The position numbers are program-made. From a virus (taxonomy: Duplodnaviria > Heunggongvirae > Uroviricota > Caudoviricetes), in IMG/VR virus record IMGVR_UViG_2541047431_000016: 19,272 bases of DNA. One strand, written 5' to 3'. Positions within the stretch are counted from its first letter, which is position 1. Every line of letters begins with the position of its first letter. Positions 16,701 through 19,272 of the stretch are shown piece after piece.

Positions 16701-19272
16701 CGCTGGCGTACCTGCATATCAGTAATTGTCACGTTCGCCAGCTTCAGCTCACTGGCTTTTTTATCGCGTTGCGCTTTGTAGGTAATGGCGTTATCGCGGT
16801 AATGATTCAGCCCCAGACTAAGCACACCACAGGCTACCAGCAGGACAATAATCACCACACACAGAACACGGTTCATATCCCCCTCACCCCACCAGCCATG
16901 ACAAAGTTAAGACGCGCCAGGCAGTGGAAAAGCAAATAGCAACCAGCATTAGTGAAAATGAAATGCCGACGATTACACAGAGGATCTTCGCCAGCGTTAT
17001 GAGCTTGTCTGACATGCTTAATCCTCTTCACGATTTCAACGCAATGACCAGTTTTGCCAGCCCATACAGCATCGGAGACACAGCAATACCGACCGCCACC
17101 CACTTAATAGCAAAAGCCAGCGCTCTGCTGACGTCATCAGTTACAGGCGCTTTCAGTTCAAGGCCGTTTTTCATAGTCAATCTCAACAGAATTCGTTTAT
17201 ACTTTCCCATGTTCTCCCTTGCCTTACTCAAGGTCAGAAACACAAAACCCCGTTTGCGGCCAACAAACGGGGTTTTACTTTTATTCACTTAGTTTTTGCC
17301 AGTTCGCAGGATTTCGTGTTATCCGCCAGTGTGAGCAAACCGCATTTTTCAGCAAAATATTCTGCTTATCTGTCAATTCCCCAGCACGCCAGCGCGCTCT
17401 CCTGGTCACGCCGTGAAACCTGACCGTAGCAGTTGTTTGAGCGAATACGGCAGTCTCTGCCACCGTCCTTAATCCACCAGCGAATCGCCTCACACGCTCC
17501 CCTGCGATCACCTGCATTAATTCGTCTGTAAAACGTCGACGGGAAACACTTACCGGGACCAATGTTGTACGGACAGAATGACGCGATCCCCGCTTTCTGG
17601 GGTTCGGTCAGCGGTACTTTAATATTGCGCTCCACCCACTCCAGCGCCTTATCACGTTCAATGGCGTTAACCTGGTCGCATTTTTCCTTCGACAACTTCA
17701 TGCCCGGAACGACAGGTTTACCATCCACCAGGATGGCACCGCGGCAGATGGTCCAGATACCCGCACCATCACGGTATGCCGTGGTGTGGTTACCTTCTTT
17801 TTCGTCAAGAAACTGGTCGAGGATTTCAGGCGCAGACGCCCCTGCACCAATCAGCGCCAGAACGGCAGCCGACAGGCCGTATCTGATTTTTGCGTTCATG
17901 GATATTTATCAGGGTTTATCGATTTCAAATCCCTGGATATGTTAAGTCTTCAGGCCAGCGGTGGAGTCTTCAGAGAACCCGTAATTATTCCCGGTAGTTT
18001 TCCTCTGTAGGTTATCAACACATCCTGCGCCTCTAAAATTACGGGGCGCTTTTCCGGCAACGGACCATCCCCTTCACATAACCCGGCAGCAACATCCATG
18101 AAAAACTGCTTCGCCTGCTTTTTCGCCTCAGCTTCGTAAAACTCCAGCGTGGCACCTTCAGTACGGTCAAGACTAATCGCCACATCTGGCAACAACAGTG
18201 ACGGATACCCACCAATTTCCGGTGCCACAGTAACAGTAATCTTATCCGGGTAATTATTTATCCCTTTAACACCCAGTTCGTATTTTTTCTTCATCGCTTT
18301 ACTCCCCCCGCGCCGCCTTACGACGGTCCTCTCTGATTTTGAAATACAGGTTAGTCAGATACGTCAGCAGGCCAAACAGCAGACTCCCCAGCACACCGAT
18401 TGCCACCACTGGGACGGAGAGACTTTGTCCAGCAGCTGCAGTAACCAGTATCCCGTCCCCACCGCTGACGTGGTGTATGACACACCTGTTGTGATTTTTT
18501 CCATCTGATGTATGTCTCCGTCACCGCCGACAGAAAATGAAAGTAAAGGAAAACAAAAAGCCGCCAGTGTCGCCCACTGACGGCCAACGCCGGGAGCCGT
18601 GATTATGGCATTCAGGCTCTGCTAAAAATGCCAGATAACATTCCGGCTCCCCCCCCTGATTCAGGTTATAAATGACACAATATCTTGACAACACCCATCA
18701 CTGTCTGTCAGAAAATGTACTGCCAGATATAAGTATCATGTGAAACCCAACTATCCTTCTTAGCCAGTATGAACCGCCCCGGAAATCCTGGAGCTAAACT
18801 CCCTGAGAAAGAGGTAAACAGGATGCTAAAAATACTCGTTTTTCCCCCGAAGTCCGTTCAGCGGGCGATTCGTATGGTTCTGGAAAGTCAGGATGAATAT
18901 GACTCACAGTGGGCGGCAATTTGTTCCATTGCCCCAAAGATTGGCTGTACGCCGGAGACTCTGCGTGTCTGGGTTCGCCAGCATGAGCGGGATACCGGGG
19001 GCGGTGATGGTGGGCTCACCAGCGCTGAACGTCAGCGTCTGAAAGAGCTGGAACGTGAAAATCGTGAACTGCGCCGCAGTAACGATATCCTTCGCCAGGC
19101 TTCCGCTTATTTTGCGAAGGCGGAGTTCGACCGCCTCTGGAAAAAATGATGCCACTGCTGGATAAGCTGCGTGAGCAGTACGGGGTCGGACCGGTATGCA
19201 GCGAACTGCATATTGCCCCGTCAACGTATTACCATTGTCAGCAACAGCGACATCATCCGGATAAACGCAGTG

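Follow-up and report, generated by a model that had tools for sequence, protein, structure and literature searches.

The stretch of virus DNA analyzed here (Caudoviricetes; IMG/VR record IMGVR_UViG_2541047431_000016; 19,272 nucleotides, in the following the window) carries a lysis cassette in which the genes of the endolysin R and the i-spanin Rz are separated by a terminator-like hairpin and two small open reading frames (ORFs) of 60 and 43 amino acids, ORF60 and ORF43 (Table 1). As judged from the sequence, both ORFs are real and conserved genes whose products are predicted to be embedded in the membrane, the terminator-like hairpin is conserved as well, and the genes are physically coupled to Rz. 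With respect to their function we tentatively favor, at somewhat less than an even chance, a link to lysis, ORF60 and ORF43 being membrane peptides that would act late.

In gene direction the gap consists of a 77-nt spacer after the R stop codon, the hairpin, a 33-nt leader, ORF60, 12 nt between the ORF60 stop and the ORF43 start, and ORF43; the two start codons lie 195 nt apart and hence in the same frame. A preliminary description of this DNA, made from the sequence alone, had given the gap as about 490 bp (measured: 489 bp) and had located both ORFs, their frames and their Shine-Dalgarno (SD) sequences, all of which was borne out by direct reading of the sequence. The overlap it had reported between the ORF43 stop and the SD of Rz is also there, the TGA (16884–16886) lying inside GAGGGGGA, 7 nt ahead of the Rz ATG. 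Homologues of ORF60 and ORF43 keep length and frame constant over 54–98% protein identity. Pairwise Nei-Gojobori comparison of the unique coding sequences yielded ratios of nonsynonymous to synonymous substitution (dN/dS) of 0.12 in frame for ORF60 (1.0 and 2.8 in the other frames) and of 0.34 for ORF43 (0.84 and 1.65 out of frame), and 21 of the 26 variable sites of ORF60 are third codon positions. Because frame and length are kept in diverged homologues and purifying selection acts in frame, both ORFs go beyond chance; on this comparative evidence they are real genes under purifying selection, and the spacer is not non-coding, which is how the conservation check proposed in the preliminary description turned out.

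Its implication that the two ORFs are new and unannotated did not hold, since PGAP calls both at exactly the window coordinates as 'hypothetical protein' and both are annotated in Escherichia coli O157:H7 Sakai (accessions and locus tags in Table 1). Profile searches, which it had also proposed, gave a divided answer. PHROG families were matched by ORF60 (phrog_1115, E 6.6e-42; phrog_4493, E 3.6e-29; phrog_3246, E 7.1e-19) and by ORF43 (phrog_4906, E 7.3e-24), all of them listed with 'unknown function', whereas scans of Pfam, NCBIfam and the PADLOC-DB defence profiles with both peptides and with an 86-residue, GTG-started version of ORF60 remained silent (Pfam and PADLOC at E ≤ 1). When 1.84 billion representatives were searched exhaustively with a hidden Markov model of ORF60, 20 matches resulted, all small proteins of one narrow family save one weak match (928 residues, E 5.9e-4), and no bridge to any known family. 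The literature searched holds no mention of WP_001280929, WP_001303555, ECs2740, ECs5740, ECs1966 or the hairpin and motif sequences described below. Both genes are already in databases as hypotheticals and represent narrow enterobacterial-prophage families with no characterised relative. They are not homologous to each other (profile-profile probability 4%), and no paralogue of either was found elsewhere in the window.

The single transmembrane segment that had been expected in each product is supported by Kyte-Doolittle maxima (19 residues) of 1.90 at residues 38–56 of ORF60 and 2.86 at residues 11–29 of ORF43. For ORF60, AlphaFold2 proposes helices at residues 3–14 and 23–59 (predicted local distance difference test, pLDDT, 75). 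Since seven K/R versus three D/E precede the membrane segment (net charge +4; whole peptide +7), ORF60 is predicted to be an N-in, tail-anchored membrane protein with a basic N-terminal part of 29 residues and a C-terminal transmembrane helix, after which about 2 residues follow; no lipobox is present. Distant relatives retain the soluble motif xY(K/R)(R/K)..R(L/I)xM(K/N)xG..(D)AP ahead of a helix with YG in it, which by its sequence is the signature of a protein and not a hydrophobic accident. The ORF60 leader with its SD is kept in E. coli, E. marmotae, Citrobacter and Salmonella. An upstream GTG start (17288; 86 residues) would make the hairpin coding and was rejected; it is also excluded by a stop two codons ahead of the ATG in E. 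marmotae and by an insertion at this place in Salmonella.

ORF43 is predicted to be a strongly hydrophobic single-pass membrane peptide (grand average of hydropathicity 1.61), likewise without lipobox and with about 10 residues past the helix. Its N-terminal 27 residues are near invariant from E. coli to Citrobacter and Cronobacter, the C-terminal 15 residues are variable, and the C-terminus seems to be dispensable or plastic. An 11-bp deletion variant of ORF43 occurs in eight loci (in L116 at ~2695–2830); its product again has 43 residues, of which the last 17 are changed, and its stop overlaps the Rz start (ATGA).

The hairpin between R and ORF60 had been described as a perfect-stem, bidirectional structure at 17248–17272. 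This core, in which CCCCGTTTG (17248–17256) pairs with CAAACGGGG (17264–17272), was confirmed and is widened by A/T pairs to 17244–17276, reading AAAACCCCGTTTG-TTGGCCG-CAAACGGGGTTTT in gene direction (17276 down to 17244), then GTGTTTCTG. In this direction an A tract lies upstream and a T tract downstream, a T-rich tract thereby following the stem on both strands. The folding energies are −21.3 kcal/mol for the minus-strand RNA and −18.7 kcal/mol for the plus strand, with Z-scores of −4.2 and −4.3 (0 and 1 of 200 shuffles, respectively, fold as well). Among 15 distinct variants that were aligned, 95.9% of the cells are paired and three pairs are changed on both sides (14 cells); none of 500 shuffles was as good, and shifting the partner column lowers the pairing to 34–63%. 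In sequence and structure the element agrees with an intrinsic (Rho-independent) terminator, and it is therefore regarded as a putative terminator. The G.U pairs of the variants correspond to A.C mismatches on the other strand, leaving the gene-direction RNA 1–9 kcal/mol stabler in nearly all of them, because of which the hairpin appears to be selected chiefly in the sense transcript, either as a terminator or as a 5' structure ahead of ORF60.

Comparison of loci further indicates that the hairpin belongs to the ORF60 unit and not to R, a point the preliminary description had overlooked. Every ORF60-family gene examined has the A tract, a CCCCG...CGGGG hairpin and the T tract 30–60 nt upstream, whatever gene precedes. 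Where the preceding gene owns a separate terminator (loci L171 and L178) the ORF60 hairpin is still present, and the two tandem ORF60 paralogues of L178 have a hairpin each. At gathering thresholds Rfam found nothing in the whole window but the IS629 ALIL element, at permissive thresholds it returned for 16800–17450 no more than sub-threshold terminator-like matches, and a scan of eight related loci gave nothing in the spacer. A shorter, different hairpin after R in the cassettes carrying the antirepressor gene ant is visible by eye and went unflagged by the terminator scan; a terminator after every R is not claimed.

On its downstream side the pair is tied to Rz through ORF43, the constant element adjoining Rz, while the genes ahead of it vary (ORF60, ant or other ORFs). 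ORF43 ends 7–11 nt before the start of two different Rz alleles and 4–7 nt before that of a small lipoprotein gene. Start and stop signals overlap as TGATG between ant and ORF43 and as GTGA between ORF43 and ORF60C, besides the ORF43 stop within the Rz SD; to judge from these overlaps, the arrangement is consistent with translational coupling.

A consensus scan found no sigma-70-like promoter on the minus strand in 16300–18700 and no sense promoter in the spacer of Shiga toxin (Stx) phages or upstream of either ORF in the relatives examined. On the plus strand a candidate antisense promoter was located inside the first codons of ORF60 (Table 1). Two promoter-like sites were found in the window against 2.6 expected from shuffles, which is not above chance when taken alone. 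The candidate antisense RNA would be about 75 nt long, running from about the ORF60 start codon over the SD and ending at the hairpin, where the A tract would supply a U tail. Across the ORF60 family TATACT does not vary, and 47 of 48 unique units have a −35-like hexamer; in divergent paralogues the −35 hexamers and spacers are others (TTGTCA-18, TTGGCC-16, TTTACC-16). In a divergent Salmonella paralogue the scan independently found TTGGCC-16 nt-TATACT at the homologous place, its only match in 700 bp. All 21 unique coding sequences of ORF60 have AAG TAT as codons 3–4, and synonymous diversity is 0.068 in codons 2–20 compared with 0.231 in codons 21–60 (3.4-fold lower); the proteins of distant relatives, too, conserve Tyr4 and the basic residues. 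Reported small RNAs (sRNAs) were considered for the gap and discarded: the AgvB/AsxR-type sRNAs lie after PR' (Tree et al. 2014), the Hfq site EcOnc11 (Tree et al. 2014), suspected in the gap from spacing, maps downstream of Rz in Sakai prophage Sp10, and the RNAs of the Pas sRNA preprint have other positions. In Sp10 (L179) EcOnc11, an orphan Hfq-binding site, occupies 1946819–1946867 of the record, just downstream of Rz and on the strand opposite the late genes; by spacing the same holds for its homologues EcOnc12 and EcOnc10.

The occurrence of the two genes was followed across phages, contexts of ORF60 being found by exact-protein look-ups. Hundreds of O157 and O145 genomes share the gap sequence with 100% identity, and 1873 of 5426 complete E. 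coli genomes (about a third) contain matches to the gap genes. As stated in the preliminary description, Rz directly follows R in K-12, where rrrQ and rzpQ of the Qin prophage overlap by 4 nt and the insert is absent; the position of ORF60 and ORF43 is unusual compared with lambda and K-12. BLAST splits the gap into modules, whose boundaries are the ORF60 5' end and the hairpin. Stx phages of the 933W and VT2-Sakai type have the order R, spacer, ant, ORF43, Rz, with the R-proximal spacer as in the window; here ORF43, whose presence the preliminary description had overlooked, is often unannotated and starts six codons earlier at an ATG overlapping the ant stop. The 43-residue gene is found in most of the matching Stx-phage records. 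Further arrangements are ORF60-ORF43, ORF60-ORF43-methyltransferase and ORF43-ORF60C-ORF28. The gene ahead of ORF60 encodes a P21-type lysozyme, accompanied by a class II or holin_2_3 holin (window, L168), a 138-residue endolysin, accompanied by a lambda-type holin (L174), or a GH108 endolysin, accompanied by holin_8/holin_3_7 (L177, L184). Over Escherichia, Salmonella and Citrobacter this amounts to endolysins of three unrelated types and holins of four families. The comparison of R-Rz joints called for in the preliminary description thus shows small membrane genes recurring there, but the joint also holds ant or a methyltransferase. Because a 311-residue DNA methyltransferase (phrog_67, E 2.6e-70) sits between ORF43 and Rz in L030 (2640–3575), the R-Rz joint is, on this sequence evidence, a general cargo site. 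The methyltransferase gene of L030 starts 7 nt past the ORF43 stop and overlaps the Rz start.

According to the reading favored here, ORF60 and ORF43 would be unrelated single-pass inner-membrane proteins of a mobile accessory module placed between the endolysin gene and the genes for outer-membrane disruption. Both would be reached solely by Q-antiterminated polymerase of the late operon reading through the terminator upstream of ORF60, with translation proceeding as a chain through ORF60, ORF43 and Rz/Rz1. In the lysogen ORF60 would be silenced by the terminator, to which a cis-antisense RNA covering its ribosome-binding site may contribute. The peptides would be harmful when made early. Their site of action would be the cytoplasmic membrane, where they would tune or assist lysis as infection ends; membrane energisation, the timing of the holin or of an endolysin of the signal-anchor-release (SAR) type, and the spanin step are candidate routes. 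From the architecture we infer late-only expression, toxicity and a lysis role. Late-only expression is suggested by the failure to find a sense promoter, by the terminator upstream and by start and stop signals chained into Rz, and harm upon early expression by the silencing architecture, that is the terminator and the possible antisense RNA. Of the roles that the preliminary description had proposed from position (lysis timing, membrane toxin, superinfection exclusion), expression confined to the late phase would in turn favor a lysis or late-toxin role over exclusion by peptides expressed in the lysogen; in outline its interpretation is plausible. Together with the recurrence of the genes after unrelated endolysins and the coupling of ORF43 to outer-membrane-disruption genes, the lack of a promoter and the silencing architecture are the reasons for favoring a link to lysis.

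Several observations weigh against such a link. Neither peptide has sequence or profile similarity to the holin, antiholin, releasin or spanin families or homology to known toxins, and lambda, phage 21-type and K-12 Qin cassettes are without ORF60 and ORF43. Relatives of ORF60 also lie behind tail-fibre or tail-fibre assembly genes, flanked by terminators, which is a typical site of morons. With ant in Stx phages and the DNA methyltransferase, the R-Rz joint holds cargo unrelated to lysis, which makes position weak evidence of function. Finally, both ORFs are intact although the holin gene of the window is frameshifted, a finding that fits a benefit at the host level as well as a lysis role.

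One alternative, partly compatible with the lysis-linked reading as it specifies the silencing mechanism and would be in keeping with late action in lysis, regards the ORF60 unit as a possible type-I-toxin-like cassette in which the ~75-nt antisense RNA would mask the ribosome-binding site, ORF43 being a separate passenger. The resemblance to hok/sok, ldr/rdl, ibs/sib, shoB/ohsC and zorO/orzO covers a small, hydrophobic and, in ORF60, basic peptide, tandem paralogues (those of L178 each with a hairpin), location in a prophage and the antisense RNA predicted over the ribosome-binding site. An antisense promoter-like site exists in the window and was met independently in the divergent Salmonella paralogue; its −10 and −35 elements persist while hexamers and spacers differ, the AAG TAT codons and the lowered synonymous diversity of codons 2–20 point the same way, and in every lineage the A tract ahead of the hairpin would give the antisense U tail. 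Yet the promoter matches the consensus only in part and such sites are no more frequent in the window than in shuffled sequence, and the conservation of Tyr4 and the basic residues in the protein implies that nucleotide conservation is partly coding constraint or recent mosaic exchange. Moreover, the G.U pairs favor the sense RNA, several variants losing 5–9 kcal/mol in the antisense one, no promoter was found for the toxin mRNA, and ORF60 sits inside an operon with putatively chained translation. There is neither a Pfam match nor one to an Rfam antitoxin, the best, ohsC, reaching 20 bits (E = 2) where the gathering score is 50. We consider this account unlikely.

It is also improbable, in our estimation, that ORF60 and ORF43 are morons expressed in the lysogen for the benefit of host or prophage (superinfection exclusion, modulation of host membrane proteins, stress tolerance) with no role in lysis. 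The mosaic distribution, the exchange with ant or the methyltransferase at the same joint, the K-12 Qin prophage lacking the insert, the ORF60 relatives after tail-fibre genes between two terminators, the integrity of both ORFs beside a frameshifted holin and the abundance among E. coli genomes would all suit such genes. The pair is extra DNA at a place where two late genes would otherwise adjoin and is missing in K-12 Qin and lambda; in this respect it resembles ant of 933W and VT2-Sakai and the lambda cargo genes bor and lom. The latter, however, have their own promoters and are expressed in the lysogen, whereas neither the window nor the relatives examined showed a sense promoter ahead of ORF60 or ORF43, and the only terminator nearby lies upstream of the pair, not downstream as in a moron; being strong in sense direction and directly upstream, it would block read-through in the lysogen. 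Compared with the ant cassettes, the R-proximal spacer and the ORF43 before Rz are the same, ORF43 thus being a constant element and not variable cargo. The tight overlaps of starts and stops with neighboring late genes, the lack of a PADLOC match and the near absence of a periplasmic or cytoplasmic domain that could block injection also speak against morons. Highly unlikely, in comparison, is the idea of inert peptides, in which the ORFs would be translated spacers restoring coupling into Rz, and the hairpin and the ORF60 5' end would be recombination boundaries. Such spacers would explain why ORF43 always ends 4–11 nt ahead of the following start codon and has its stop within the SD, why its last 15 residues vary and tolerate the 11-bp deletion, and why the ORF60 5' end and the hairpin coincide with breaks between BLAST modules. 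This is contradicted by the purifying selection on the amino-acid sequence, the near-invariant N-terminal part of ORF43, the constant length and the helix and soluble motif that distant relatives of ORF60 keep, and by the occurrence of ORF60 where no Rz exists to couple to.

The lysis-linked reading invites comparison with known lysis proteins. In size, predicted helices and location in the cassette, ORF60 and ORF43 agree with holins and antiholins such as lambda S105/S107, the phage 21 pinholin S68/S71 and P1 LydA/LydB, which are, as ORF60 and ORF43 would be, small basic membrane proteins made from the late transcript and expected to be harmful early. They differ in lying downstream of the endolysin gene, in having one transmembrane helix each and no charged C-terminal tail, and in matching no Pfam Phage_holin_* family at E ≤ 1 and no NCBIfam family; a class II holin, although frameshifted, is already present. 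The releasin gp25 of phage Mu (DUF2730; PMC9239132) is also a membrane-tethered accessory protein encoded downstream of a SAR endolysin. It has 99 residues, an N-terminal transmembrane helix in N-out/C-in orientation, a 73-residue acidic cytoplasmic domain and hardly any periplasmic part, and the release of the endolysin depends on it (PMC9239132). ORF60 shows the opposite layout (60 residues, basic N-terminal 29 residues, C-terminal helix), has no DUF2730 match and also accompanies cassettes that are not of the SAR type. With the spanins Rz/Rz1 and the unimolecular spanin of T1, ORF43 shares an inner-membrane helix like the N-terminus of Rz, in addition to adjoining Rz/Rz1 in putatively chained translation. 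However, ORF43 lacks a periplasmic coiled-coil domain and a lipobox and is too short to span the periplasm; because of the missing periplasmic domain, the predicted products of ORF60 and ORF43 cannot be spanins.

A bolder version of the lysis-linked reading, which we judge quite unlikely, would make the ORF60 unit a portable 'terminator-gated' late-toxin cassette and ORF43 an overlooked fifth lysis gene of Stx phages. The cassette would then comprise the bidirectional terminator, the leader and a membrane peptide with an antisense promoter hidden in its first codons, the peptide being made solely once the locus is flooded by Q-antiterminated polymerase. ORF43 would have Rz/Rz1 or the small lipoprotein as its partner and influence the timing of lysis and hence of Shiga toxin release. 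The accepted lysis set in Gram-negative hosts consists of holin, endolysin and spanin, occasionally joined by an antiholin or a releasin; the timing of lysis sets the burst size and in Stx phages also the exit of Shiga toxin. Should ORF60 and ORF43 influence lysis, a well-studied pathway would gain new components in a phage group of medical importance, and the design of ORF60 would, if true, be a compact way of keeping a harmful late gene silent in the lysogen. If the genes are dispensable, they would be an ordinary pair of mosaic hypothetical genes. The chief interest lies in ORF43 as part of the Stx-phage lysis cassette and in the unusual, testable silencing architecture of the ORF60 unit.

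Table 1 Features of the lysis region of the window (positions in the 19,272-nucleotide stretch).
Feature	Position	Strand	Remarks
R-Rz gap	16877–17365	−	489 bp
ORF60, 60 aa	17028–17210	−	ATG start; Sakai ECs_2740 / WP_001303555.1
ORF60 5' leader	17211–17243	−	contains SD AAGGGAGAA, 3 nt upstream of ATG
ORF43, 43 aa	16884–17015	−	ATG start, SD AGAGGA 7 nt upstream; Sakai ECs_5740 / WP_001280929.1
Intrinsic-terminator-like hairpin	17244–17276	both	13-bp stem (6 G-C), 7-nt loop
Candidate antisense promoter TAGTCA-18 nt-TATACT	17174–17203	+	inside ORF60 codons 3–12; 9/12 matches
R-proximal conserved spacer	17289–17365	−	from alignment of loci
Endolysin R, 177 aa	17366–17899	−	Phage_lysozyme PF00959, E 1.5e-24
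DUF1327/YdfR-family gene, 114 aa	17950–18294	−	between holin and endolysin
Class II (S21-like) holin	~18299–18505	−	first in gene order, upstream of DUF1327/YdfR gene
i-spanin Rz	16409–16876	−	PF03245, E 2e-46; Sakai equivalents of Rz/Rz1: ECs_2738, ECs_2739
o-spanin Rz1	16471–16656	−	embedded in Rz

All lysis genes of the window lie on the minus strand, and prophage Sp14 of E. coli O157:H7 Sakai agrees with it in layout and sequence, the order common to both being terminase, pchC, Rz/Rz1, ECs_5740, ECs_2740, endolysin, YdfR-like gene, holin and IS629. The N-terminus of the endolysin R is weakly hydrophobic and of the SAR type; the protein is 93.8% identical to R of VT2-Sakai, and R of 933W is employed as a SAR endolysin (PMC9239132). 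Within the R-proximal spacer, about 40 nt past the R stop codon, the 17-nt motif CGGATAACACGAAATCC (17309–17325, minus strand) is invariant and single-copy in 130 of the 181 fetched loci, including those of Salmonella. It adjoins a hypervariable patch of ~17 nt that is often palindromic around GGCC. A mini-ORF of eight codons ending in the TAA of CGGATAACACGAAATCC is present in 36 of 44 variants and lost in eight (ATG to ATA), and was not convincing.

Further small ORFs were observed in related loci. Downstream in the GH108 cassettes of Citrobacter, Cronobacter and E. marmotae, gene calling gave no member of the Rz family (PF03245). In these cassettes (L184 2640–2822; L183 2640–2822; L177 ~1810–1990) the ORF43 homologue is followed 4–7 nt on by the gene of a 60-residue lipoprotein (MKRKHWTHR...LLVGC; phrog_7528, 'unknown function'), which is frameshifted in the E. 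marmotae copy; by its sequence this lipoprotein could be the outer-membrane component of the GH108 cassettes. Phage PhiR5_1 (L007, 2400–2850) and L161 have tandem small hydrophobic ORFs between the ORF43 homologue and Rz: a GTG-started ORF of 40 residues, which equals the C-terminal helix of ORF60 and overlaps the ORF43 homologue as GTGA, and after it a 28-residue paralogue (MSAELIRAMAFAIRIVAIAVLVWAIRWW) before Rz. 'Fusion' proteins in databases (e.g. P0110) appear to be frameshifted readings of such an array. In Salmonella locus L168 a hydrophobic ORF of 32 residues (MAAMICFVAAFMLACDGRSGWGWFLLVGLIVM; 2714–2812) begins in the last lysozyme codons, upstream of the motif and the hairpin.

The DUF1327/YdfR gene, which K-12 Qin carries as well, is a further uncharacterised resident of the lysis cassette of the window. 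Compared with ECs_2743 of Sakai Sp14, the holin gene of the window has a 1-nt deletion (GGG to GG) at ~18405–18410, the rest of the 440-nt stretch being identical. The deletion splits the gene into ORFs of 46 and 36 residues and reflects either a sequencing error or a holin that has become a pseudogene in a cryptic prophage. A copy of IS629/IS1203 (IS3 family) is inserted upstream of the holin, which is also the case in Sakai Sp14; it occupies ~18700–19272 on the plus strand and includes the programmed-frameshift ALIL pseudoknot at 19104–19220 (Rfam RF01497, 121.5 bits). Between IS629 and the holin start lies another terminator-like hairpin (18559–18585, minus strand) with 11 pairs followed by TTTTTGTTTTC.

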